Assembly: GCA_964503955.1 (NCBI GenBank)
Contig: CAZDCG010000001.1
Span: 68,962-107,803 of the forward strand
Reading direction: 5' to 3'
Length of the DNA stretch: 38,842 nucleotides
From: an uncultured Gammaproteobacteria bacterium
GTDB lineage: Bacteria > Patescibacteriota > Patescibacteriia > VMEV01 > CAYQCH01
This document shows positions 27,291-38,842 of the stretch, piece by piece; the first letter of the stretch is position 1, and each line of letters begins with the position of its first letter. Position numbers and translations under genes: made by a program. The notes below the pieces were generated by a model. It was not told the DNA's origin and ran no database searches. It was given only the letters and a program-made list of their open reading frames with translations.

Positions 27291-28044
27291 ACTCGATGGT
27301 TGCAATCACAACCACCTCTTCTGATCCGGCTTCAAACTCTGGAGCAGGTGCGGCGGAATCAAGAGCTTTCTCTGCTTGCGCGAAATCCAGGCGATACATC
27401 GGCTGCGGCACCCCGGCGCTTGATTCAGAGAAAGAGACGATTTTTCCAAGAGAAACTCCTGTCAGATCAGCTAATTCCTGCGCCTTCTCTCTCGCATTTG
27501 CCAAAGCTTCTTCTCTTGCCAGCTGTCGGTATGATTCCGGTTCGTCGATGGTAAAGGACAAGCCGCTGACTTCATTTACCCCATTCTGGCTTGCGATGCG
27601 GATCACTTCGCCCGCATTGTTGAGATCGCGGATCTTGACCTGAAGGCTTTGGCGGACTTCAAAACCGCGGAATTCACGCACCCCTTCGATCCAGTCGTAA
27701 ACCGGAGATACTGTATAGGCTGTTGATTTTAGATCTTTGCTGTCGATGCCGGACTGCTTGAGCTCGTTGACAAGTCCATTGTACTTTTCAATGTTTTGCG
27801 CCTGGGCCTCTTCCGCATCGCGTCCTTCCGTGACGATCGAAACGGTGATCTGCCCAAGATCAGGGATTGCGGTTACGCGCCCTTCGCCCGTGATGGTGAT
27901 GGTGTCACGCTCGGTATCGGGCCGGCCGATATAGCGGTTTTCTTTAACAGCATTCACCGACAAAATAGCGATATATACGGTTGACGCGAGCAGGAGAATT
28001 CCCGCAAGCACAGATAAGAGCTGCGCGAAAGGCAATTTTTTCAT
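27277..28044 (-). CDS. SIMPL (DUF541/BP26) domain protein
   Basis: TM anchor, ITITGEGRVTAIPD, ALANAREKAQELA..G..LG.I, GSEEVVV...IEY. Confidence 0.92.
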   Translation of the reverse strand: MKKLPFAQLLSVLAGILLLASTVYIAILSVNAVKENRYIGRPDTERDTITITGEGRVTAIPDLGQITVSIVTEGRDAEEAQAQNIEKYNGLVNELKQSGIDSKDLKSTAYTVSPVYDWIEGVREFRGFEVRQSLQVKIRDLNNAGEVIRIASQNGVNEVSGLSFTIDEPESYRQLAREEALANAREKAQELADLTGVSLGKIVSFSESSAGVPQPMYRLDFAQAEKALDSAAPAPEFEAGSEEVVVIATIEYEIY

Positions 28045-28121
28045 AGTTTTGTTTTAACGCTTCCTTCAAAGTATACCAGACAAACGAATTGTAAAAAAGA
28101 AGGAAAATGGTAGTATAGAGA

Positions 28122-28214
28122 AGACGCACAGACGTTACAGACGCTGAAGACACCTCAGACGGATGGCCGGATTGTCTGTGACGTCTCAAATAGTCTGTGA
28201 TGTCTGGAATGTCT
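28122..28214 (+). repeat. Five AGAC direct repeats then five inverted GTCT repeats (8-10-nt period) in the hisS leader
   Basis: AGAC at 28122, 28130, 28139, 28148, 28157; GTCT at 28174, 28183, 28193, 28202, 28211. Confidence 0.85.
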
Positions 28215-28219
28215 ATTAT

Positions 28220-29500
28220 ATGAGCCTCATCGAACCAGCCATTTTGAAAGGAACCCGTGATTTCGCCCCGGAAGAGATGCGCAAGCGTCTTTTTGTAATT
28301 GATACCATGCGCGAGATTTTTGAACGCCGCGGCTATGATCCGATTGAAACGCCGGCCATTGAATACGCCAAAACCATTCTAGGAAAGTACGGAGACGAGG
28401 GCGATCAGCTGACCTATACGTTCAAAGACCATGGAGGGCGTGCAATCGCGCTGAGATATGATCAGACTGTTCCTACCGCCCGATTCGTGGCCGCGCATCA
28501 AAACGAACTGCCTTTTCCGTTCAAACGCTACCAGATCGGACCGGTTTGGCGCGCGGATAAACCGCAAAAGGGCCGCTATCGTGAATTCGTTCAGTGCGAT
28601 ATCGATATTATCGGCGCGGAAAGCCTGCTCGCCGACGCGGAAGTCGCCCGCGTGATATTTGAAGTCTTCAGCCGGCTGAAGGTGAAGGATTTTGTCATCC
28701 GCATCAACTCCCGCAAAGCGATTAATGACTTGCTTGACGCCTGCAAAGTGAAAAAAAACTCCCGCATCGACGTAATCCGGCTGATCGACAAATTAGACAA
28801 GGTGCCTCTCAAGAAAATTCAGAGTGAGCTTGAAAAAACCAGCATGACAACGGATCAAGTTGTAAAGCTGACTGACATGGCGCTTTCTGAAAAAACCAGA
28901 AACCGCATTGACCAGCTCCCCGACGGAGAAGGAAAAAGCGAACTCAAACAACTTTTCGTTTATCTTGAAGCGCTTGGCATCCCCGAAGAGCATGTCATGG
29001 TCGATCTGACGCTTGCCCGAGGGCTTGATTACTACACAGGAGTCATTTACGAGGTGATCGTGCCAAATTCCGGCTTAGGTTCGCTCTGCGGAGGAGGACG
29101 ATACGATGATTTAACCGGACTCTTTTCCGAGAAAAAATTCCCTGGAATCGGCGTTGCCTTTGGATTGGATCGGATTGTTGAGCTGCTCAAAGACCGGGGA
29201 TTATTAGATGATGCCAAGCTTTCTTCTTCAGAAGCGCTTGTCGCACATTTCCCTGACACGGTAAAAGAAAGCGTTGCGGTTTTAAACGAATTGCAAAAAG
29301 CAGGTATCCGCTCAGAGCTCTATCTCGAACCAGTTCCTTTAAAAAAACAATTCAAGTTTGCTGATAAAAAGCAGATCAAATGGATGCTTCTGCTTGGAAG
29401 CAATGAAGCCAAGCAAAAGAAGGTGGTCCTTAGAAATATGGAAACCGGAAAGCAGGAATTGCTTACTTTGCAAAAAGCCATCAAGATCATGCAGAAATAA
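28220..29500 (+). CDS. hisS: Histidine--tRNA ligase
   Basis: KGTRDF, LRYDQTVPTAR, RADKPQKGRYREFVQCD, LARGLDYYTG, GGGRYD. Start moved to MSLIEP (28220). Confidence 0.97.
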   Translation: MSLIEPAILKGTRDFAPEEMRKRLFVIDTMREIFERRGYDPIETPAIEYAKTILGKYGDEGDQLTYTFKDHGGRAIALRYDQTVPTARFVAAHQNELPFPFKRYQIGPVWRADKPQKGRYREFVQCDIDIIGAESLLADAEVARVIFEVFSRLKVKDFVIRINSRKAINDLLDACKVKKNSRIDVIRLIDKLDKVPLKKIQSELEKTSMTTDQVVKLTDMALSEKTRNRIDQLPDGEGKSELKQLFVYLEALGIPEEHVMVDLTLARGLDYYTGVIYEVIVPNSGLGSLCGGGRYDDLTGLFSEKKFPGIGVAFGLDRIVELLKDRGLLDDAKLSSSEALVAHFPDTVKESVAVLNELQKAGIRSELYLEPVPLKKQFKFADKKQIKWMLLLGSNEAKQKKVVLRNMETGKQELLTLQKAIKIMQK

Positions 29501-29511
29501 ACGATCCATCC

Positions 29512-29543
29512 AAAAAGCCCACAGGAACCCTGCGGGCTTTTTT
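29512..29543. terminator. Bidirectional terminator between hisS and gap
   Basis: AAAAAGCCC-A-CAGG-AAC-CCTG-C-GGGCTTTTTT. Confidence 0.85.
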
Positions 29544-29564
29544 GTTGTTTGCGGGACAAAAGTT

Positions 29565-30578
29565 CTAGCTCTTCTTCAGCTTCTTCCCTACTTCAACAGC
29601 CATTTCCACCAGGCGGTTTGAGTAACCCCATTCATTGTCATACCAGCCGATCACTTTGACGAGGTTGCCTCCGACCACCTTGGTAAGGCTTAGATCAACA
29701 ATGGTTGAATGCGGATTGCCAATGATATCGCTTGAAACAATCGGTTCTTCCGTTACTTCAAGGATGCCTTTGTACAAAGGATGGTTTGCCGCTTTGCGAA
29801 ACGCATTGTTAATTTCTTCTTCGGTGGCATCGCGCTTGAGCAAAAAGGTGAAATCAGACAACGAGCCGACGGCAACCGGGACGCGGATGGCAAGCCCGTC
29901 AAAAATTCCTTTGAGCTCAGGGATGGTATGCGTGGTCGCGATCGCGGCCCCCGTGCTTGTGGGAACGATATTCTGGGCGGCAGAGCGCCCTCGGCGCAGA
30001 TCGCTGTGCGGACCGTCAACCAGCGCCTGGTCGGCCGTATAGGCGTGGATGGTTGTCATCATCGCCTTTTGTACGCCAAAGGTTGCGTGCATGACAGCGG
30101 CGATGGGCGCGATGCAATTGGTGGTGCAAGAAGCATTGTCGATAATCAGTTCATTGGCACTATGCTTATTGTCATTGACCCCAAGCACGTATGTATTGAC
30201 CCCCTCGCCCTTGCTGGGAGCCGAAATAATCACGCGTTTTGCTCCCGCTTTAACGTGAAGCCCTGCTTTTTCTTTGTCTCGAAATACCCCGGTGCTTTCA
30301 ATCACTACGTCGATGTCGAGATCACCCCATGGCAATGCGGCCGGGTCTTTTTGCGAAAATGCTTTGATCGTTTTTCCATTGATCGCAATGCTTCCTTCGC
30401 CCGCTTCCACTCGATGTTTGTATCGTCCGTAAACCGAGTCATATTGAAGCAAATACGCGAGTGTTTTTGTGTCCGCCAGATCATTCACCGCGACGAATTC
30501 CACGTCGTCGCGATCAAAGCCAGCTTTTAGCGCATTACGCCCGATGCGACCAAACCCGTTGATGGCAATTCGTATCAT
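29565..30578 (-). CDS. gap: Glyceraldehyde-3-phosphate dehydrogenase, type I
   Basis: INGFGRIGR, NASCTTNC, WYDNEWGYS. Confidence 0.98.
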   Translation of the reverse strand: MIRIAINGFGRIGRNALKAGFDRDDVEFVAVNDLADTKTLAYLLQYDSVYGRYKHRVEAGEGSIAINGKTIKAFSQKDPAALPWGDLDIDVVIESTGVFRDKEKAGLHVKAGAKRVIISAPSKGEGVNTYVLGVNDNKHSANELIIDNASCTTNCIAPIAAVMHATFGVQKAMMTTIHAYTADQALVDGPHSDLRRGRSAAQNIVPTSTGAAIATTHTIPELKGIFDGLAIRVPVAVGSLSDFTFLLKRDATEEEINNAFRKAANHPLYKGILEVTEEPIVSSDIIGNPHSTIVDLSLTKVVGGNLVKVIGWYDNEWGYSNRLVEMAVEVGKKLKKS

Positions 30579-30667
30579 AGTGAGTTGATAGTGTTTAGGT
30601 TTTCGTTTTTAGGATGCTCCCCCCACTCGCTTTTCAGCTTTGTAGATTTCCCCTGTAAAATCGTATA

Positions 30668-30692
30668 ACAAAAGGAGCCGAAATGGCTCCTT
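30668..30692 (-). terminator. Terminator after the 30717-32132 gene
   Basis: AAGGAGCC-ATTTC-GGCTCCTT-TTGTT on the minus strand. Confidence 0.7.
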
Positions 30693-30716
30693 AAGTATAT
30701 CACAATGCGTTTGTTC

Positions 30717-32132
30717 TTACTGCAGATTGCCGACGCGCACAATGCCTTCCGGGCGTGCTTCATACACACCAGGTGTCAGCACGTCTTTGTAATCACGGAA
30801 GGATCCGTACAGGGTGAAGGTAATCGCGTAGCTTTCGCCGCCAATGCGGTTATCGTACATCAGCTTGGTCGTTGGTCCAGGGTTTGGAATATTGTCCAGG
30901 TATACCGTGCCGTACTTCTCGCCAAACGCCCCATATTGGGATAGCTGGCGGTAAGAACCTTCGCCAAGGGAAATTGCATGGTTTTGCGGAATCGGATACC
31001 CATGGACTTCCGCCACATATTTGGACAAAGCGTCTTGAATTGAACGAACAATACCGACAATGCGGGCGGCCTCGACGTTCACGTCCAAGGTTGACGGATC
31101 CCATGTTTGGTTGCCTGAATCGACAACAGTACCGCGATTGGCAAATTCCTGGTTATTCATCAGGCCTTCCATCGCGCTCCAATGATAGGTTCCCTTTTCC
31201 AAAAGGCCATGCTCAGCCGTTTGGATATCGGACGGCAAATCAAAATGCATCAGCAAATTGCCATTTGATTCGATCTCTGCCTGGAAGTGGTCAAAGTAGA
31301 ACTTGAAGAATTCCATGGAAAGATCTGACCACACCCAATAGTGGTCCGGGCGATTGGAGAGCGTGAATCCGCTTGCGTCCATGTAAATCGGCTGATTCCA
31401 ACCAAACACATTGGCAAACCATTTGATTTCAGGAAAGTAGCCGTGATCGCGGTGAAACTGCTTATACGCAGAGCTAAGACTTGAAACAAATTCCCAGGCA
31501 AGCTGCGCATTCGCGAACTCAACGGAACCGAGGTTCGCCTTCACTTCGTCGATATTAATGCGAACCGGCTGCGGCACAGACGGTGCGGACGGGGTTTCGA
31601 CAACGACGGGAGCTGAAGCTGGAGGAGTATTCACGACCGGTGTTGCCGGCACAAGCTGAAGATGAGAAAGCGCGATTGCATTGATATCAGCAAGCGTTGC
31701 TCCAAGCGCAATCTTCTTTACATGCTCGTAGGTTGATTCTCCCGTACCAAGATAGTAGCGGAAACCGTCATGCGGGTTCACAAACCAGACTTCACCCTTT
31801 TGCTCTACGGCGAGAAGGAATTGTCCTTTCAGCCTGTCGCGCAAAACGGCATTCTCCCTTCCAAGCGCCTGTCCCGGCTGGGGAAGCTTGTTAAGATTTT
31901 CATTGCTGATGCCGATCATATTGTCTTTGATCAGCTTCCAGGCAGCCTGCGCGTGAGCGACATGAACGCGCTCGCCGGTTTCAGGCAGGACATACCAGAT
32001 CTTGCCCCGGTCCTGGACCGAAAGCAGGAAATACCCCTTCAGGCGTTCAGCCTGCGAGGTCTGTGCGAATGCGGGCAGTGCTGAGGTAAGACCCGCAGCC
32101 ATTGCAAGCATTGCCAATAGTGCTTTTCGCAT
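30717..32132 (-). CDS. Secreted protein: signal peptide, 2 CPR-type repeats, Pro-rich linker, two pilin-head-like domains
   Basis: Signal peptide ending AFA; LKGYFLLSVQDRGKIWYV and LKGQFLLAVEQKGEVWFV repeats; SAYKQFHRDHGYFP and IQDALSKYVAEVHGYP...SYAITFTL...RPEGI. Confidence 0.75.
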   Translation of the reverse strand: MRKALLAMLAMAAGLTSALPAFAQTSQAERLKGYFLLSVQDRGKIWYVLPETGERVHVAHAQAAWKLIKDNMIGISNENLNKLPQPGQALGRENAVLRDRLKGQFLLAVEQKGEVWFVNPHDGFRYYLGTGESTYEHVKKIALGATLADINAIALSHLQLVPATPVVNTPPASAPVVVETPSAPSVPQPVRINIDEVKANLGSVEFANAQLAWEFVSSLSSAYKQFHRDHGYFPEIKWFANVFGWNQPIYMDASGFTLSNRPDHYWVWSDLSMEFFKFYFDHFQAEIESNGNLLMHFDLPSDIQTAEHGLLEKGTYHWSAMEGLMNNQEFANRGTVVDSGNQTWDPSTLDVNVEAARIVGIVRSIQDALSKYVAEVHGYPIPQNHAISLGEGSYRQLSQYGAFGEKYGTVYLDNIPNPGPTTKLMYDNRIGGESYAITFTLYGSFRDYKDVLTPGVYEARPEGIVRVGNLQ

Positions 32133-32162
32133 AGTGAATTTGTTAATCGGCTTAATCGGTGG

Positions 32163-32191
32163 ACTTTAGCACAAAATCTGGAATTAGTCAA
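32163..32191 (-). promoter_or_regulatory. Sigma70 promoter for the 30717-32132 gene
   Basis: TTGACT-17-TAAAGT with extended TG. Confidence 0.7.
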
Positions 32192-32193
32192 GA

Positions 32194-32220
32194 GCAAAAA
32201 CAAAAGCCCCGATGCGGGGC
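32194..32220 (-). terminator. Terminator of the rpsB-tsf operon
   Basis: GCCCCG-CAT-CGGGGC-TTTTGTTTTT. Confidence 0.75.
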
Positions 32221-32244
32221 CCTCGTTTTGTCATCAGTGGCTGA

Positions 32245-32832
32245 TTACAGTGAAAAACGGCTAAAATTAGTCAAAGTAATATTCTCCCCAAGGACGGAAA
32301 TCGCCGATTGAATCAATGACTCGATGGTTTTCTCATCATCTTTGATAAATCGCTGTTTGAGCAGAACCTTTTCTTCATAGAAACGGCCCATCTTCCCTTC
32401 AACGATTTTATCAAGCATTTCTTCAGGTTTTCCTTCTTTTCGAAGCTGTTCTTTATAGATTTCCTTTTCCTTTTCAAGAATGTCTGCTGGAACATCTTCG
32501 ACGTTCAGGTATTCAGGATCAGACGCCGCCACATGCATGGCAATGTCTTTAGCCAGGTTCTGGAAGAGCTCGTTGCGAGCCACAAAGTCAGTTTCGCACT
32601 TGAGAACAATCATGGAGCCGACTTTTCCGCCCGCGTGAATATAGGCTTCAACCAATCCTTCATGGGTTTCACGGTCCGCCTTTTTCGCGGCTTTCGCGGC
32701 TCCGGCTTTGCGCAGGATTTCAATGGCTTTTTCGATATCTCCCTGCGCCTCTTCGAGAGCGCCCTTGGCAGCCATTAAGCCTGCACCCGTGCGTGCGCGA
32801 AGCTCGGTGACTTTCTTCATCGCTTCGTTCAT
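32245..32832 (-). CDS. tsf: Elongation factor Ts (short form)
   Basis: LRARTGAGLMAAK, HEGLVEAYIH, LKCETDFVAR, DIAMHVAA. Confidence 0.97.
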   Translation of the reverse strand: MNEAMKKVTELRARTGAGLMAAKGALEEAQGDIEKAIEILRKAGAAKAAKKADRETHEGLVEAYIHAGGKVGSMIVLKCETDFVARNELFQNLAKDIAMHVAASDPEYLNVEDVPADILEKEKEIYKEQLRKEGKPEEMLDKIVEGKMGRFYEEKVLLKQRFIKDDEKTIESLIQSAISVLGENITLTNFSRFSL

Positions 32833-32853
32833 ATGGATTTTTGCTTAAGAACA

Positions 32854-33672
32854 TTATGCCTTAACGGTTTCTTTCTTCTTGGCAGGAGTCTTCTTTGCCG
32901 CAGGTTTCTTTTCAGCGGTTTTCTTGGCCGCAGCTTTCTTCTTTGGCTTCTCTTCGGCGGGTTTTACAACCTTTGCCGCCACGACTTTGCGGTTGTTCAA
33001 ACCTTCTTTTACCGCTTCGGTCAATACGCCCATCAAAAGGTCAATCCCCTTGGTGGCATCGTCATTTGCGGGGATCATATGCTTCACCCCGCGTGGGTTC
33101 ACGTTTGTGTCACAGAAAGCAAATACAGGCACATGCACGACATTTGCCTCCTGCAAAGCGGTTTTTTCGGTGCGGATATCCACAATAACAATCGCCTGAG
33201 GCAATTTTTCAAGCGTGACAAGACCTGAAACGAAAGTAGCAAGTTTTTCAACTTCTTTCTGCAGAAGCACCTGCTCTTTTTTGGTGTATTTTGCCCACTG
33301 GCCGGCTTCCCGCTGTTTGAGCAAATCAATATATCGGCGGATCGTCTTTTTTACTTCGCCAAAGTTCGTAAGCAAACCGCCGATCCAGCGGCCGCGCACA
33401 TACGGCATGCCGACTTCGGTCGCGTACTTCTCAACAATCGGCTGCGCCTGTGACTTTGTTCCGACGAACAGAACGGTTCCTCCGTCGGCAACGATTTTCT
33501 GCAAATGCTGCGCTGCTTCTTCAAGCTTTTGCGCGGTCTTTTTTACGTCGATGATGTGACGGCCATTTTTTGCTGTGTAGATGTATGGCGCCATCTTAGG
33601 ATGCCAGCGAGACGACTGGTGGCCAAAATGCACACCCGCTCGGAGCAACTCCTCCATGCTAGGGATCTTCAT
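32854..33672 (-). CDS. rpsB: 30S ribosomal protein S2
   Basis: AGVHFGHQSSRWHPKM, RWIGGLLTNF, DTNVNP, IPANDDA; Lys/Ala-rich tail. Confidence 0.98.
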   Translation of the reverse strand: MKIPSMEELLRAGVHFGHQSSRWHPKMAPYIYTAKNGRHIIDVKKTAQKLEEAAQHLQKIVADGGTVLFVGTKSQAQPIVEKYATEVGMPYVRGRWIGGLLTNFGEVKKTIRRYIDLLKQREAGQWAKYTKKEQVLLQKEVEKLATFVSGLVTLEKLPQAIVIVDIRTEKTALQEANVVHVPVFAFCDTNVNPRGVKHMIPANDDATKGIDLLMGVLTEAVKEGLNNRKVVAAKVVKPAEEKPKKKAAAKKTAEKKPAAKKTPAKKKETVKA

Positions 33673-33686
33673 ACCCTTTTTTCACC

Positions 33687-33847
33687 TACGGCTCGCGCTG
33701 TGGGACCTTAAGGCGTTTCTAAAATGGCTTTAAGGCAGGACCGGCAGCGAATCAAGAACCGTATGTTTTTTAATGAGTTAACAAAAGCCAGTGCCAGTTA
33801 CGGCATTGGCGTGCAAGAACTATACGGGAAAACGCCTTTTTCCGCAA
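33687..33847 (-). promoter_or_regulatory. rpsB promoter and structured 5' leader (candidate S2 autoregulatory element)
   Basis: TTGCGG-17-TATAGT (33847-33819); long irregular leader hairpin 33763-33687 (TACGGTTC/GAGCCGTA, CGCTG/CAGCG, CCTTAA/TTAAGG). Confidence 0.55.
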
Positions 33848-33855
33848 GGAGTATA

Positions 33856-33884
33856 TTGACAAAATAGGTAAAAAATGCTAGAAA
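33856..33884 (+). promoter_or_regulatory. Promoter for the GC-rich insert, back-to-back with the rpsB promoter
   Basis: TTGACA-17-TAGAAA with extended TG; last -10 position is non-consensus. Confidence 0.6.
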
Positions 33885-33889
33885 TAGAC

Positions 33890-34089
33890 GATGCCGTCTT
33901 ATCAGTTCCCATAAACGGGGGCGGGACGTCATCTGTTCGAACCGAAAGGGGCATGCGGTGTTCTTCCTGAAAGGACGAATACCCAACTGATGTTGGGCTT
34001 TCGTCACCGCACAACTGAATCTCTCATGACTTCCGGTCACTGAGAGTCCTCCAAGGAGTGCGGTGACACCGCATTCCAAGGAGATTCTC
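33890..34089 (+). ncRNA. Candidate structured cis-regulatory 5' leader RNA (family not recognised)
   Basis: Multiple helices: TGCGGTG/CACCGCA, GACGAA..CCCAAC-TGAT-GTTGGG..TTCGTC, CTCTCA-TGAC/GTCA-TGAGAG, GGAGTGCGGT/ACCGCATTCC; ends at SD AAGGAG. Confidence 0.55.
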
Positions 34090-35241
34090 ATGGCCGACTT
34101 CATCACCCGTCGCATCAGCGCCCTGGTCAACCGCGTCAACAGCGCCATCCAGGGCCGCGGCCAGAACGAGAGGAAGGTGTCCGATGACCTGATCAACGCG
34201 GCCGCCCGCCTCGTGGAGCGGGCCAAGGCCGCCTTCACCCCGCTCGAGTCCAACGGCTGGGACATCGAGCAGAGCATCTACCAGCAGCCGATCGAGGTCT
34301 CGCACGAGGACCTCAACCAGTCCGAGCCCGCTCCCGTTCAGGAGCTGGTGATCGAGGCCACGGTCCCCGTTCTGGAGACCGCGCTCGAGCCGCCGGCTGA
34401 CGAGATCGAGGAGGAGGAGCCGATCGCTGAGACCGAGGACTCCGAGCACGACGAGGGGGTCTGCGAGATCACGACCGTGGTCATGCAGGCCCACTGCGTC
34501 CAGCGCAGCACGTTCCGCTGCGGGATGTGCGGCAGCACGCACTTCGGTGCCGACATGGTCGGCGCCAGGGTGAACGCGTTCGCCGCGATACCCAACGACG
34601 AGATGATCATCGCCAAGAGCGTGTGCAAGCACTGCTGCGACAGCGATGACTGGGGATGGCTCGCCGGCGTGATCAAGTACGCCGGCCACGCGCGCGCGAA
34701 CAAGCTCGAGCGCTGCGTGAAGCTCATGGAGTCCGCGCTCTTCGGAGACCCCGAGAAGAGCGACGCCTGCCGCATGCGGTACCTGGCCAACAACGACCAG
34801 CCCGCGCGCGCCCACAAGGCTCTCGAGATCCTCGAGCGCCTCACCGAGAACTGCAGCTCGCAGCCGACCGTCGAGAAGGACGAGCGGATCCGGCAGCTGC
34901 GGAACAAGGCGGAGCTCTGGGCCACCGAGCAGGAGGCCCAGCGGCTGGCGGGCAAGATCCGGCACCGGATCGAAGCGGGGAACTTCAAGCGCGCGTACAA
35001 CACGCTCAACGAGGCGCGCAAGCAGTTCCCCAAGCAGACCAAGTCCTGGGACAAGCTGGAGTCCGAACTCAAGGACGCCCAGTCCAGGACCGAGCAGGAG
35101 GAGATCATCGCCGACCTCCGCTCGAGGATCGCCAAGGCGGCCAGCAATGACGACACCGAGACGCTCGTCGCGCTGATCGCTCACGGAAGCAAGATCGCTC
35201 CCCATCTCGACTGGGAGCAGATCGCGCTCCAGGCCATGTAG
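34090..35241 (+). CDS. Orphan GC-rich protein: acidic linker, CxxC..CxxC Zn-binding region, helical/TPR-like C-terminus
   Basis: AAGGAG SD 6 nt before ATG 34090; 19 of the first 20 codons after ATG end in G/C; RCGMCGSTHF..VCKHCC. Confidence 0.85.
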   Translation: MADFITRRISALVNRVNSAIQGRGQNERKVSDDLINAAARLVERAKAAFTPLESNGWDIEQSIYQQPIEVSHEDLNQSEPAPVQELVIEATVPVLETALEPPADEIEEEEPIAETEDSEHDEGVCEITTVVMQAHCVQRSTFRCGMCGSTHFGADMVGARVNAFAAIPNDEMIIAKSVCKHCCDSDDWGWLAGVIKYAGHARANKLERCVKLMESALFGDPEKSDACRMRYLANNDQPARAHKALEILERLTENCSSQPTVEKDERIRQLRNKAELWATEQEAQRLAGKIRHRIEAGNFKRAYNTLNEARKQFPKQTKSWDKLESELKDAQSRTEQEEIIADLRSRIAKAASNDDTETLVALIAHGSKIAPHLDWEQIALQAM

Positions 35242-35344
35242 GGTTCAGCTCGCGAGGGCTGTTCCCGCTCCTGGAGATCGTCACCACCGACGGTCTCCAG
35301 GACGAAAATATTTTCATAACTATTTGTGAACATATTTTCGTTCC
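35241..35344 (+). other. Three consecutive hairpins after the orphan gene
   Basis: GGG..CAGCTC-GCGA-GGGCTG..CCC; CTGGAGATCGTC-6-GACGGTCTCCAG (35271-35300); ACGAAAATAT/ATATTTTCGT (35302-35311/35332-35341) with inner TTCATAA/TTGTGAA. Confidence 0.7.
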
Positions 35345-35381
35345 ACGCTCTTTTGTTCACCACCATGAATCGGAGAATCAC

Positions 35382-36083
35382 TTGACCAAGAAGCCCATGT
35401 TGTTCGGCGCCAGCCTGGCAATCCTTGCCTTGGCTGTCTACTTCGCCATTCAACACAGCAGCCGGGCGACCACGGCCAACGTGGTTCCCCCTACCCCCAA
35501 CCAGCCGAAGGAAGCGCCAGCGACATCTGCTCGCCCCGTCTACACGCAAGACGAGATGAGGGCATTCCTGGGCAATGTGCTCATGCCGTTGCTTCACTCG
35601 GCCAGGCAGGAGTATCCGGTCGTTTCGGTGCGAGAGTCCATGGAAGGGCTCATGGCCAGGATTGAGCGGCACGAAATTCTCCTGGTGATCCAACCGGTCT
35701 ACATGGGCGGAGGGCTGGCGCGCTCAGGAATGTCGCAGGATGGCAGGCCGATGCTTGAGATCATCCTTCCCGCGGCTATGCAGTTCCACGAGGAAACCGG
35801 GCGCGATACCGAGAGCTTCCAGGATGAGATGATCGCGACGGTGCTGCATGAGCAGTATCACATCGATCATCACTTCAAAGCTCCCCTTCCCGCGACACAA
35901 GCCGAATCGGAAGCATGGGCGTATACGATTCGCGAGGTCTACCTGCCGATGTCCAAAGCCGGCCGCCTCAAGCAGGTCGACAGTACGGCAGGTGCGGGTA
36001 TCCTCTCCTATCACGCTTGCGGCGGTGATACGAATCACCGGGCATGGCAGGCGTTTATCGGGACAGTCACGTCCCCCTACTAA
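35382..36083 (+). CDS. Membrane-anchored putative zinc metalloprotease (HEXXH)
   Basis: GGAG SD plus TTG start, N-terminal TM, Pro-rich linker, ATVLHEQYHIDH and downstream AESEAW. Confidence 0.7.
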   Translation: MTKKPMLFGASLAILALAVYFAIQHSSRATTANVVPPTPNQPKEAPATSARPVYTQDEMRAFLGNVLMPLLHSARQEYPVVSVRESMEGLMARIERHEILLVIQPVYMGGGLARSGMSQDGRPMLEIILPAAMQFHEETGRDTESFQDEMIATVLHEQYHIDHHFKAPLPATQAESEAWAYTIREVYLPMSKAGRLKQVDSTAGAGILSYHACGGDTNHRAWQAFIGTVTSPY

Positions 36084-36084
36084 A

Positions 36085-36130
36085 GCAGCCCGGTTTCTCT
36101 TTTCGCGGAGGAGCCGGGCTGCGTTCTTTC
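36085..36130 (+). terminator. Terminator hairpin closing the insert
   Basis: GCAGCCCGG-TTTCTC-8-GAGGAG-CCGGGCTGC followed by GTTCTTTC. Confidence 0.7.
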
Positions 36131-36154
36131 ATTAAAAAGTCATGATGATATTGA

Positions 36155-36307
36155 TCAAGAAGTTTCTTTGATCTCGGGAAAAACTTGCTTATTCCCGCAC
36201 CACGGACAGCACCAGTCTCTTTTTTCTTCAGGCGCATCACCAACGGACCACCAGCCTTTACAAGAACCGTATTGAAAGTGATGTAAAATTTCTTTCGAGC
36301 GGGACAT
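36155..36307 (-). CDS. 50-aa small Zn-ribbon-like protein
   Basis: MSRSKEILHHFQYGSCKGWWSVGD..DWCCPWCG; starts 1 nt after the cupin stop. Confidence 0.6.
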   Translation of the reverse strand: MSRSKEILHHFQYGSCKGWWSVGDAPEEKRDWCCPWCGNKQVFPEIKETS

Positions 36308-36308
36308 A

Positions 36309-36719
36309 TCAGATTCCGTATTGGCTTTCCATTTCTTTTCCGAACCGCTCATCCTCTTCATCTGCCATAGCTTCTGCTTTTGTCGCATGCACGATCCCGT
36401 CAAGATGATGAGGAGGCCAATAGATTGTATAAATCTTCAAAGGCTCTTCTCCCGTATTAATGAAGTTGTGCTTCACGCCGGGCCGCACATTCACAACGTC
36501 GCCGGGACCTACCGGAAATTCCTTTCCATCAAGCACGCCTTTCCCTTCTCCCTGATGAAAGAAGAGAATTTGTTCGGTATGCTCATGCACTTCTTCGCCG
36601 ATATCTTCTCCCGGCTGAATACACATCACAACGAGCTGGGAATTTTCAAATGTCTTCGCCACTTTGCGATAGGACTCGTTCTCTTCTGTTTGCTTGATGA
36701 TATCAACGGCAGATTTCAT
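36309..36719 (-). CDS. Cupin-domain protein
   Basis: IQPGEDIGEEVHEHTEQILFF..GEG..PGVKHNFIN. Confidence 0.92.
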   Translation of the reverse strand: MKSAVDIIKQTEENESYRKVAKTFENSQLVVMCIQPGEDIGEEVHEHTEQILFFHQGEGKGVLDGKEFPVGPGDVVNVRPGVKHNFINTGEEPLKIYTIYWPPHHLDGIVHATKAEAMADEEDERFGKEMESQYGI

Positions 36720-36730
36720 AGTAAATCAAA

Positions 36731-37030
36731 TCAGATTTCAAGCATGATCTTTCCCTCAAAGCCTCCCCTGTCTTCGTACTTCATACGCTTGCGCTCAAGG
36801 ATATCTTCCATGGAAAATCCTTTTTCTACGGAAATTGCGTCAAGCACTTCAAGAATATCGGCAATTTCCTCCGGCTGTTCTCGTGTGAGATACTCGTTCA
36901 CTTCCTCAAGCAATTTCTCGCGCAAGGCTTCGGCATACTCCCAGTCGCTTGCCACACGGATGACAGGTTCTTTGCCTTTTGAGCGGATGAGGTCAGGAAT
37001 TTTGTCACGAACAAGCTTTGAAGATTTCAT
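36731..37030 (-). CDS. MazG/PRA-PH-like nucleoside triphosphate pyrophosphohydrolase
   Basis: KLVRDKIP..LREKLLEEVNEY..EEIADILEV..RGGF. Confidence 0.88.
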   Translation of the reverse strand: MKSSKLVRDKIPDLIRSKGKEPVIRVASDWEYAEALREKLLEEVNEYLTREQPEEIADILEVLDAISVEKGFSMEDILERKRMKYEDRGGFEGKIMLEI

Positions 37031-37036
37031 ACACAC

Positions 37037-37318
37037 TTATTTTCCCAAATTATTCAACTTCCCAAAAATATTCGCTAAGGATTTTGGATCCATGCAATAG
37101 TTCTTACCTTCTTCGCGTTCAAATGGAGTAAAACGCCTTACATTCTTTCCGTCTACTTCTATCTCGTCTTCAAACATGGCTCTTGGTCTTGCCCATATCT
37201 TGCTTTCATCGTTGATATCTTGATAGACGATTAAATCCTCAAGCGTTTCCGTATGCTTGGCAATCGCGACAATCCGATATTCATTGCCTTTGTAATGACG
37301 AAAATAGGTTTCAGGCAT
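37037..37318 (-). CDS. DUF1653-domain protein
   Basis: YFRHYKGNEY..AKHTETLE..IVYQ..IWARPRAMF..RRF. Confidence 0.9.
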   Translation of the reverse strand: MPETYFRHYKGNEYRIVAIAKHTETLEDLIVYQDINDESKIWARPRAMFEDEIEVDGKNVRRFTPFEREEGKNYCMDPKSLANIFGKLNNLGK

Positions 37319-37319
37319 A

Positions 37320-37853
37320 TCAGTAATGATGAGGATGCAGGAGATGGACCAATGCCATCATCACCGCTTGTTTATTGTACATGGTTCGATCCATTTTGCC
37401 ATTGCTCAGCAGCCAGATCCCGCCTTGCGCCGTGCCGATTTTTTCATGCTGAGTAATCCCGGCCTGGCGAAGCGCCTGGCTGCCGTCAAACTCGCCTGAA
37501 ACAATTAAATCCGTCACTTGCTTTGGCCATTCATAGGCTGAAGATAGACCAAGATGGATTTGCCGGCCGTCAAAAATGGCGCAGGCGGCCATTTCCATAT
37601 AACCGCTTTTGGTCGCGGGAACTTCAATCAGCCCGCCCTCAATGCCAAAGCTTAGATCCGCTCCTTCAAAAGCGGCTCTAGCCCGATCAGCGGCTCCTTT
37701 GATCACGGCCTCCATGCCGATGGGGTGGCCGAATTCTTCAACTGAAACATCCACGCCAACAACTTCCGCGTTTTCAAACTCAGGATGACCTTGCAGAGAT
37801 TGAGCAACCGCATTGATTTTCGTTTGATTTTTTGAGCCAACATGAACGCGCAT
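37320..37853 (-). CDS. Inosine/xanthosine triphosphatase (YjjX/DUF84 family)
   Basis: VGSKNQTKINAV, GAADRARAAF, FGIEGG, GGIWLLSNG.MDR. Confidence 0.88.
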   Translation of the reverse strand: MRVHVGSKNQTKINAVAQSLQGHPEFENAEVVGVDVSVEEFGHPIGMEAVIKGAADRARAAFEGADLSFGIEGGLIEVPATKSGYMEMAACAIFDGRQIHLGLSSAYEWPKQVTDLIVSGEFDGSQALRQAGITQHEKIGTAQGGIWLLSNGKMDRTMYNKQAVMMALVHLLHPHHY

Positions 37854-37868
37854 AAGGGAGAAAGATCC

Positions 37869-38195
37869 TTACAACTGATCAATCTTTGCGGCGAGGATAA
37901 AATCATTTTCAGAAAGCCCTTTGATCGCATGCGTGCTGAGCAGCACATCCACCTTATTCCAGCGGATCGTGATGTCCGGATGATGACCTTCAAGTTCAGC
38001 CAAATCGCCAACGAGATTGACGAATCCAAGCGCCTCGGCAAAATCGCCGAACCGAAACTGGCGATGAATAGACAATCCGTCTTCAGCAAGTTTCCATTCA
38101 GGAATCTCAGCCATCAGCTTCTCGGCTTCTTCGCGAGGCATGGGAGGAATTCCCCCTTCGCAAGGCACGCAATGTTTTTGTGTGAGGGTGGACAT
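37869..38195 (-). CDS. phhB: Pterin-4-alpha-carbinolamine dehydratase
   Basis: CVPCEGG, F.DFAEALGFVN, EGHHPDI, STHAIKGLSENDFILAAKID. Confidence 0.93.
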   Translation of the reverse strand: MSTLTQKHCVPCEGGIPPMPREEAEKLMAEIPEWKLAEDGLSIHRQFRFGDFAEALGFVNLVGDLAELEGHHPDITIRWNKVDVLLSTHAIKGLSENDFILAAKIDQL

Positions 38196-38221
38196 ATTCT
38201 AAAGTTAACATTACTTGACAA

Positions 38222-38239
38222 AAGCGTATTTATACGCTT
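38222..38239. promoter_or_regulatory. Palindrome with 8-bp arms (operator candidate) inside a TTGACA-18-TATCAT spacer
   Basis: AAGCGTAT-TT-ATACGCTT. Confidence 0.55.
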
Positions 38240-38345
38240 ATCATTTATTTAGATCACCACGAAAAGCGCCCTTCAAGGTTCCGTCCTTGCGGGGTTCTTT
38301 TCTTTTCAGCCTTTTTTCAGGTTTGCCCATACATATGCTTTTCAT

Positions 38346-38373
38346 CTGGATTCCCGCCTTCGCGGGAATGACA
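38346..38373. repeat. REP-like palindrome matching ATTCCC-N8-GGGAAT
   Basis: CTGGATTCCC-GCCTTCGC-GGGAATGACA. Confidence 0.75.
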
Positions 38374-38381
38374 GAGTGCTG

Positions 38382-38419
38382 CCCCCTCTCCTTGCGAAGG
38401 AGAGGGGCCGGGGGTGAGG
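38382..38419. repeat. Second REP-like palindrome (CCTCACCCCCGGCCCCTCTCC-type)
   Basis: CCCCTCTCCTT-GCG-AAGGAGAGGGG plus CCGGGGGTGAGG tail, abutting the secA stop. Confidence 0.65.
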
Positions 38420-38842
38420 TCAAGCTCCGTGACAATGCTTGAATTTTTTTGGTGTCCCGTCTTCTTTTGTGGCACCACAAGGACAAGCATCATTTCTCCC
38501 CACGTTCTTGAATTTCTCATCTCCCGCGTGCAAATGCACTTCAGCATCGCCTCCCTGCGCTCCTTTGCTCTGCGTTTTTGCCGGCGCGGAGAATTGCAAA
38601 GCTTTATCAAGCACCGACTGCTGTGCCTGCAGCTTTGCGCGGACTTTGAAGATGGAGTTCACCACTTGTTTCTGCATTTCCCGCAAAAGACCATTGAACA
38701 AGTTGAAAGACTCCTTCTTGTACTCCACAAGCGGGTCGCGCTGGCCATATCCGCGCAAGCCGATGCTTGTTCGTAATGAATCCATGGTTTCAAGATGTCC
38801 GATCCAGAGATTATCAATCGTTCGCAAGAGCAATTCTTTTTC
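38420..38842 (-). CDS. secA: Preprotein translocase ATPase SecA, C-terminal part (runs off window end)
   Basis: IDNLWIGHLETMDSLR..IGLRGYGQRDPLVEYKKE; SEC-C motif VGRNDACPCG..KKFKHCHG with a short insertion. Confidence 0.96.
   Translation of the reverse strand, partial: EKELLLRTIDNLWIGHLETMDSLRTSIGLRGYGQRDPLVEYKKESFNLFNGLLREMQKQVVNSIFKVRAKLQAQQSVLDKALQFSAPAKTQSKGAQGGDAEVHLHAGDEKFKNVGRNDACPCGATKEDGTPKKFKHCHGA

Follow-up and report, generated by a model that had tools for sequence, protein, structure and literature searches.

Two GC3-rich orphan genes beside rpsB in a Candidate Phyla Radiation bacterium: probably independent residents of a variable slot

This report concerns two adjacent genes, g1 and g2, in the genome of a bacterium of the Candidate Phyla Radiation (CPR). 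The genome (G000 below) comprises 1.12 Mb in 7 contigs and has a GC content of 50%; its size and gene content indicate a member of the Patescibacteria/CPR. Both genes lie within a stretch of 38,842 nucleotides (nt), positions 68962-107803 of contig C1, that we refer to as 'the window' and whose own numbering we follow. g1 (34090-35241) encodes 383 amino acids (aa) and g2 (35382-36083) encodes 233 aa, both on the + strand. On their left, on the - strand, are rpsB and tsf; on their right, also on the - strand, a run of genes extends to secA: a cupin gene, a gene of 101 aa, a DUF1653 gene and a DUF84 NTPase gene. A preliminary description of the window, made from the letters alone, took g1 and g2 for a self-contained, GC-rich insert with expression signals of its own, and possibly for a defence or effector unit. 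The features of the locus are as follows.

32854-33672, - strand: rpsB; with tsf, also on the - strand, it lies to the left of g1 and g2.
33753-33764, no strand: left copy of a 12-nt direct repeat, CAAGAACCGTAT, 81 nt upstream of the rpsB start codon.
33856-33884, + strand: sigma-70-type promoter, TTGACA-17 nt-TGcTAGAAA, with an extended -10 TG (TTGACA at 33856-61), read from the sequence and a promoter scan.
33891-34089, + strand: 5' leader, predicted to span some 200 nt and to be strongly structured, its start placed from the -10 box.
34041-34090, + strand: predicted hairpin in which the Shine-Dalgarno (SD) site and AUG region of g1 pair with an upstream CCUCC...UGAGAG (-31.7 kcal/mol, z = -6.4).
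34090-35241, + strand: g1, an orphan of 383 aa. Its N-terminal region is helical and leads by way of an acidic linker to a CGxC...CKxC zinc ribbon and a GWLAG motif; its C-terminal half consists of helices resembling tetratricopeptide repeats (TPR).
35270-35341, + strand: two adjacent strong hairpins 3' of g1. The first, at 35270-35301, has a GC-rich stem of 13 bp; the second, at 35302-35341, is an AT-rich near-palindrome.
35382-36083, + strand: g2, 233 aa. A signal-anchor helix at its N-terminus is joined by a Pro-rich linker to a zincin-like domain of 170 aa carrying HEQYH (156-160) and ESEAW (175-179).
36085-36122, + strand: intrinsic terminator, a 16-bp stem followed by a U-rich tail (-31.9 kcal/mol, z = -5.4).
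36261-36272, no strand: right copy of CAAGAACCGTAT, 37 nt past the stop codon of the cupin gene.

The block is conspicuous first of all for its composition, and the GC step reported beside rpsB holds at both resolutions examined. In 500-nt windows, GC content is 59-67% between 34001 and 36000, and 44-54% over the remainder of the window; in 100-nt windows, it climbs near 34050, dips to 39% in the gap that separates g1 from g2, and has come down again near 36100. g1 has a GC content of 0.66 and values of 0.63, 0.41 and 0.95 at the first, second and third codon positions (GC1, GC2 and GC3), and g2 a GC content of 0.60 with values of 0.61, 0.45 and 0.74. The near-saturation of GC3 claimed for both is thus true of g1 but not of g2. 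Six neighbouring genes (rpsB, tsf, cupin, DUF1653 and NTPase among them) have GC contents of 0.39-0.51 and GC3 values of 0.39-0.57, and the genome as a whole has a GC content of 0.50 and a mean GC3 of 0.54. By either yardstick g1 and g2, with GC at 0.60-0.66 and GC3 at 0.74-0.95, are atypical of their host.

Relatives of the two genes in other genomes share this peculiarity. Of 60 related genomes searched, one, G001, which belongs to the same family as G000, has a homologue of g1 (36% identity). That homologue has a GC content of 0.61 and a GC3 of 0.86, among neighbours whose GC3 is 0.25-0.30. Homologues of g2 occur in G001 (34% identity) and G003 (26%), with a marginal match in G004, and GC3 of the g2 family lies 0.2-0.3 above that of the neighbouring genes in G000, G001, G003 and at a further locus, L026. 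Where the g1 proteins of G000 and G001 have identical residues, their genes agree in the codon 58.6% of the time, compared with 60% expected from independent draws, so that silent sites are saturated, as they are in the rpsB and tsf controls. Two further GC3-rich genes of G000 have homologues with GC3 of 0.70-0.94 in G001, G002 and G003; two others that were queried have no relatives. Over such a span, a gene imported and then left to neutral change would have drifted to the composition of its host. Either GC3 is held gene by gene, or the source of divergent copies, drawn upon again and again, is a GC-rich pool absent from the databases. The preliminary description had offered 'a distinct origin or expression regime' for the block. 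A separate expression regime is borne out by the signals described below, but a single foreign origin is not, since the homologues in sister genera are saturated at synonymous sites and yet still elevated in GC3. More distant relatives of g2 (26-31% identity) lie on contigs of 57-63% GC, which do not come from close kin of G000 and in which a high GC3 is native.

Nor are g1 and g2 alone in their own genome. G000 contains 47 stretches of at least 500 nt with a GC content of at least 60% (67.6 kb in total), and 40 open reading frames (ORFs) with GC3 of at least 0.70. In GC1 and GC2 this class exceeds the bulk of the genome by just ~0.05, and in GC3 by ~0.3. SD sites, too, are commoner in GC3-rich ORFs: where GC3 is at least 0.62, a properly spaced SD 5-mer stands ahead of 16% of the candidate starts, versus 3-4% in the remaining ORFs (5-9% for the control, internal in-frame start codons), an enrichment of about four-fold at the starts of GC3-rich ORFs. 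The 3' end of the 16S rRNA is CACCUCCUUUCU; the anti-SD sequence is present, and so the ribosome is able to read such sites. Genomes in which core genes are poor in SD sites and a minority of genes is led by strong ones are familiar from the Bacteroidia, and the likeness is plain, for here, too, core starts lack SD sites and a subset has strong ones. The difference is that the anti-SD is intact in G000, and that its SD-led subset is set apart by high GC3 and orphan status rather than by ribosomal or translation-factor function. We found no description in the literature of such a gene class in CPR bacteria. In G001, a genome of 37% GC, small GC-rich ORFs (GC 0.54-0.62) lie between core genes near gap (L016:1918-2705), so islets of this kind occur there as well.

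The block has its own promoter, SD sites, terminator and structured RNA, and in this respect the preliminary description stands. The promoter has a counterpart in G001, where the g1 homologue is preceded by TTGACA-17-TGcTATAGT at -257 from the start codon (-234 in G000). The SD site of g1, AAGGAG (34078-34083), is 6 nt ahead of ATG 34090, and that of g2, GGAG (35372-35375), is 6 nt ahead of TTG 35382. The starts of the rpsB, tsf, cupin and NTPase genes have no properly spaced SD site, which confirms the contrast that had been drawn between the two genes and housekeeping starts. Transcription would begin near 33891 and end at 36122. The leader of g1 has a minimum free energy of -88 kcal/mol (z = -5.1 versus shuffles), and by folding over the ribosome-binding site it would probably gate translation of g1 in response to some trigger. 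RNA thermometers and translational riboswitches are SD-sequestering 5' leaders of this general sort, and the g1 leader is like them in being long and in its predicted pairing of both SD and AUG. It is like them also in that the core of its hairpin is kept in the only homologue whose DNA was compared, that of G001: the alignment preserves GUGCGG/CCGCAC at the apex, together with both of the CCAAGGA boxes that flank it. It is unlike them in that it matches no Rfam family (nothing in 33500-36400 does), and in that the G001 version of the hairpin folds weakly (-15.5 kcal/mol, z = -2.1); the alignment comprises these two sequences, and contains no compensatory changes. The leader, the intergenic hairpins and the terminator have no second copy in the genome, and are not, therefore, dispersed repeats.

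Between g1 and g2, the intergenic RNA folds with z = -7.8, and both hairpins were also scored as inverted repeats. The near-palindrome at 35302-35341, with arms of 18 nt that are 89% complementary and a spacer of 4 nt, follows directly upon the GC-rich hairpin. Together the two may represent a partial or composite terminator, an mRNA stabiliser, or an operator. The promoter scan found no recognisable promoter belonging to g2 itself in G000, and for this reason g2 is probably produced by read-through past the two hairpins. In G003 and at four other loci (L023, L024, L026 and L027), the g2 homologues each have their own promoter of the form TTGACA-16/17-TAnnnn.

Whether g1 and g2 belong together can be judged from their relatives. 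In the genomes and loci compared, homologues of the two are never adjacent outside G000. In G001, they are on different contigs, g1 on C7 and g2 on C1; G003 has g2 only; and none of seven other g2 loci (L023-L027 among them) has a relative of g1 in its flanks. The pair is not a conserved unit, because its members are unlinked in G001 and g1 is absent from those seven loci, and the idea of a co-functional two-gene cassette is not supported. Two findings in combination were named in advance as grounds for abandoning the earlier reading, namely that the genes never co-occur and that similar GC-rich orphans are scattered about without shared features. The first is what we see, and the scatter is there, too, in the form of the 47 islets, but these are not featureless: they share SD sites, consensus promoters and terminators.

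The place that g1 and g2 occupy, between rpsB and the cupin gene, is variable and has been repeatedly occupied by GC3-rich genes. G001 and G004 have secA, one small gene, rpsB and tsf, in that order. In G003, the g2 homologue is 3 kb upstream of rpsB, beside a DUF1653 gene, and g2 looks like an older resident of the neighbourhood than g1. In G002, the slot is filled by other genes, including one of 648 aa (L017:10073-12019, - strand; GC 0.66, GC3 0.96) that has a signal-peptide-like N-terminus and is unrelated to either g1 or g2. In G000, the whole interval from rpsB to secA (33673-38420) is 4.7 kb long and contains six extra genes, these being g1, g2, the cupin gene, the 101-aa gene, and the DUF1653 and DUF84 NTPase genes; a further short ORF lies within it on the - strand, at 37869-38195.

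The proteins themselves are members of very small families. Neither g1 nor g2 scored above threshold with any family in Pfam, NCBIfam, PADLOC or PHROGs, and sequence-profile searches of the PDB gave no match. In PADLOC, no family matched either protein even at E <= 1. Searches of phage and plasmid sequences by tblastn were empty for both, a search of viral contigs was empty for g1, and scans of metagenome contigs were empty as well. A role in defence, or as an effector, is not supported by these searches, and a toxin-immunity reading was rejected for want of any family match.

We take the start of g1 to be ATG 34090. Its SD site is suitably spaced, the gene call in the database (P0001) begins there, and the homologues have the resulting MA.F N-terminus in common; GTG 34063 was rejected on the same three grounds. 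The protein has no signal peptide. When 1.84 billion cluster representatives were searched exhaustively with HMMER, four relatives came up (P0003-P0006), and a word-indexed search of 5.8 billion proteins matched only g1 itself. All four cysteines of CGxC...CKxC are invariant in the six g1-family sequences, and the earlier sketch of a zinc-binding protein holds. The structural model is reliable from about residue 270 to the C-terminus (383), and unreliable for residues 1-200. The C-terminal half is confidently helical; its Foldseek matches are all TPR-like, but weak (E >= 0.08), and TPR_14 and TPR_19 match below threshold in three to four of the six family members. From this we infer that g1 is a cytoplasmic scaffold or adaptor of a tiny family, in which a predicted Cys4 zinc ribbon is combined with TPR-like repeats. 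LapB (YciM) and other adaptors that join TPRs to a zinc ribbon or rubredoxin offer the nearest comparison: there, too, a Cys4 module accompanies TPR-like repeats and faces the cytoplasm, and the LapB structure 4zlh is among the weak fold matches of g1. g1 differs in that its domains are in the reverse order (the zinc ribbon precedes the repeats), it lacks an N-terminal transmembrane helix, and there is no sequence similarity. The likeness is one of resemblance only, and the g1 model is unreliable over residues 1-200. An ORF of 393 aa on the - strand (34024-35205) is a shadow cast by the high GC3 of g1; the database gene call and all of the homologues are on the + strand. The shadow is longer than the true gene (383 aa), and gene callers that favour the longest ORF would choose the wrong strand, as a greedy ORF listing did here.

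g2 probably starts at TTG 35382, which yields an MTKK... N-terminus resembling that of the G003 homologue. This N-terminus is basic and is followed by a hydrophobic helix of 18 residues. Eight relatives were found in the 5.8-billion-sequence database, and HE[QKEW]xH is present in nine of nine family members (H156, E157 and H160 in g2). The model has a mean predicted local distance difference test score (pLDDT) of 84, and of more than 90 across most of the domain (residues 60-230), which consists of two helices, a three-stranded sheet, the HExxH helix (143-164) and the ESEAW helix (171-192). E175 and E177 of ESEAW are invariant, and on the model they are candidates for the third zinc ligand, which would come from this next helix. 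Structural comparisons gave weak but consistent matches: in a viral structure library, Foldseek matched g2 to SprT-like, IrrE and M48 proteins (probability up to 0.97, E 0.02-0.1, TM-score ~0.3), although against the PDB there was no match below E 0.4. Among curated families, the best match is to DUF7844, at 16 bits versus a cut-off of 27, and one family member matches Peptidase_M9 below threshold (E 0.021). We suggest that g2 is an exported, membrane-tethered zinc metallopeptidase of gluzincin-like type, from a tiny and uncatalogued family, its zinc binding and catalysis being predicted from the motif and the model; it would act at the cell surface, held there by its N-terminal helix. The 'membrane metalloprotease' of the preliminary description survives in this form, as a membrane-anchored HExxH protein. 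Export is supported by a distant relative that carries a lipoprotein-type signal (LVAC).

Minimal zincins (SprT-like, IrrE/ImmA of family M78, M48-type and minigluzincin) share with g2 an HExxH motif on a long helix that follows a small, three-stranded sheet, and g2 has an invariant Glu motif on the following helix; the best fold matches, as noted, are to proteins of this kind. Set against this, the E-values and TM-scores of those matches are poor, and there is no sequence match in Pfam, NCBIfam or the PDB. g2 departs from the known minimal zincins, moreover, in that ESEAW is just 15-17 residues past HExxH, and in its predicted export and tethering through a Pro-rich linker, SprT and IrrE being cytoplasmic. 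The relative with the lipoprotein signal lies at L023:705-1487, on a contig of 63% GC from an organism that is not close kin of G000; nearby are a gene for an extracytoplasmic function (ECF) sigma factor and a gene of 573 aa that is translationally coupled to it.

Taking the locus as a whole, we put at roughly 60% the explanation that g1 and g2 are two independent, lineage-specific accessory genes in the variable rpsB-cupin slot, and that both belong to a GC3-rich class in which high GC3 is kept family by family. On this explanation the block is neither a mobile cassette nor a two-component system. Members of the class would be single or paired genes, mostly orphans, with G- or C-ending codons, a canonical SD site, a near-consensus sigma-70 promoter and a strong closing hairpin—features that core genes would lack—and the class would be spread over the CPR genome and its sister genera. 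High GC3 would then be a property that each gene family keeps, and not the mark of a fresh import; selection on mRNA, or GC-biased conversion in accessory genes that recombine frequently, are candidates for the force that keeps it. ORFan islets in variable slots between core genes are much the same in several ways: they are atypical in composition, have no detectable relatives beyond a narrow lineage, vary in content from one genome to the next, and carry self-contained expression signals. What sets the present case apart is that GC3 stays high in homologues that are saturated, in genomes of 37-55% GC, and that the shift is nearly confined to third codon positions, with no mobility genes.

Judged as a candidate 'system', the locus is unremarkable, comprising two unlinked orphan genes with nothing to indicate defence or mobility. 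Its value is of another kind. The g1 family is a clean test case: its GC3 is 0.86-0.95 although the genomes have GC contents of 50% and 37% and silent sites have fully turned over. Such persistence calls into question the habit of taking compositional islands for recent imports, and it bears, too, on the evolution of synonymous sites in ultra-small symbiotic bacteria. The analysis also defines two small, new protein families, one predicted to be an exported minimal zincin, and the other a protein of zinc-ribbon/TPR type whose structured leader is conserved.

Several points weigh against independent, family-kept accessory genes. The slot differs between genera, and the relatives compared are not close enough to show an empty site. 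The evidence that GC3 is maintained comes from a few genomes, and repeated import from an unsampled, GC-rich pool could account for it. Distant relatives of g2 exist on GC-rich contigs, and g2 may have been imported long ago from a lineage of that kind. In G000, g1 and g2 may well be co-transcribed, and a functional link could have evolved locally. A unique and perfect 12-nt repeat brackets exactly the unit from promoter to terminator, as a single insertion would leave it. Finally, the metal ligands and the export of g2, and the gating of g1 by its leader, are predictions.

An extension of the same explanation goes further, and we advance it tentatively, at something short of even odds. The CPR family to which G000 belongs may keep a second tier of genes: fast-evolving, insulated, SD-translated orphans whose silent sites are actively held at G or C regardless of genome composition, through mRNA-level selection or strong GC-biased gene conversion, and which would form a separate expression programme, used, for example, at contact with the host. 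If so, its members would include g1, with a conserved leader that hides the ribosome site, and g2, as an exported zincin of a new family.

Of the explanations that compete with independent accessory genes, recent horizontal import fares best, but we consider it unlikely. It supposes that a cassette of 2.5 kb, complete from promoter to terminator, came from a high-GC donor (the host bacterium, or an unsampled phage or plasmid) in a single insertion that duplicated or used a 12-nt target. The sharp compositional step at both ends would suit it, as would the variability of the slot, the arrangement of secA, one gene and rpsB in G001 and G004 being simpler and ancestral, and the GC-rich contigs on which distant relatives of g2 reside. 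So would the repeat, copies of which begin at 33753 and 36261 on either side of the unit. CAAGAACCGTAT has exactly two copies in the 1.12-Mb genome, and extended leftwards the imperfect match reaches ~28 nt; to this extent the earlier statement that the block lacks a clear target duplication has to be qualified, even though the rest of it, that there is no integrase, transposase or tRNA, is correct (none of the first two among the neighbouring genes, and no tRNA in 28000-38842). A flank repeat of at least 12 nt occurs, however, in 2% of 3000 control flank pairs, and over 29 islets one was seen where 0.6 were expected, so we cannot tell the present one from chance. Nor are flanking direct repeats a general trait of the GC-rich islets, a notion that was rejected for want of enrichment over the controls; an integron cassette was likewise rejected, there being no integrase and no attC-like recurrence.

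The composition of g1 also speaks against import. A donor of ~70% GC would give a GC1 of ~0.70 and a GC2 of ~0.50; the values in g1, 0.63 and 0.41, are those of a mid-GC proteome. The two genes differ, besides, in GC3 (0.95 and 0.74), and their homologues are unlinked in G001. No homologue of g1 came to light beyond the six-member family among the 1.84 billion representatives, and the phage and plasmid collections (for both genes) and viral contigs (for g1) were, as we have said, empty. That g2 lies within a few kilobases of rpsB and a DUF1653 gene in G003, also, argues for its residence before g1 arrived. Homologues exist in both G001 and G003, and saturated synonymous sites with a GC3 of 0.86 against a background of 0.25 do not look recent.

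Less probable again, to the point of being rather doubtful, is that the two genes form a functional module peculiar to this genome: a single, leader-controlled operon in which cytoplasmic g1 regulates, chaperones or neutralises exported g2, in the manner of an effector and its immunity protein, or of a protease and its adaptor. The genes are on the same strand and share a single promoter and a single final terminator; in G000 g2 lacks the separate promoter that its homologues elsewhere have; and folding predictions place the ribosome-binding site of each gene partly within paired RNA. Against such a module are the lack of co-occurrence elsewhere and the two strong hairpins that separate g1 from g2, together with the lack of any match in PADLOC, or to a toxin or immunity family in Pfam or NCBIfam. 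g1 is also much larger than typical immunity proteins.

An artefact, in which a chimeric assembly or a binning error joined GC-rich foreign reads to a CPR contig, might be suspected from a compositional step in a metagenome-assembled genome, but it is effectively refuted by Logan contigs from two independent, single-run assemblies that match the window with 100% identity (33300-36758 and 33786-36114; the longer one begins within rpsB, ends within the cupin gene and reproduces both junctions), by the recurrence of similar islets 47 times inside long contigs, and by homologues embedded in contigs of sister genomes. A G001 contig used in these comparisons, CAYGRO010000007.1 (L022), comes from the same family as G000 (rpsB ~63% and tsf 84% identical), and the label on its record, 'uncultured Gammaproteobacteria bacterium', is probably wrong.

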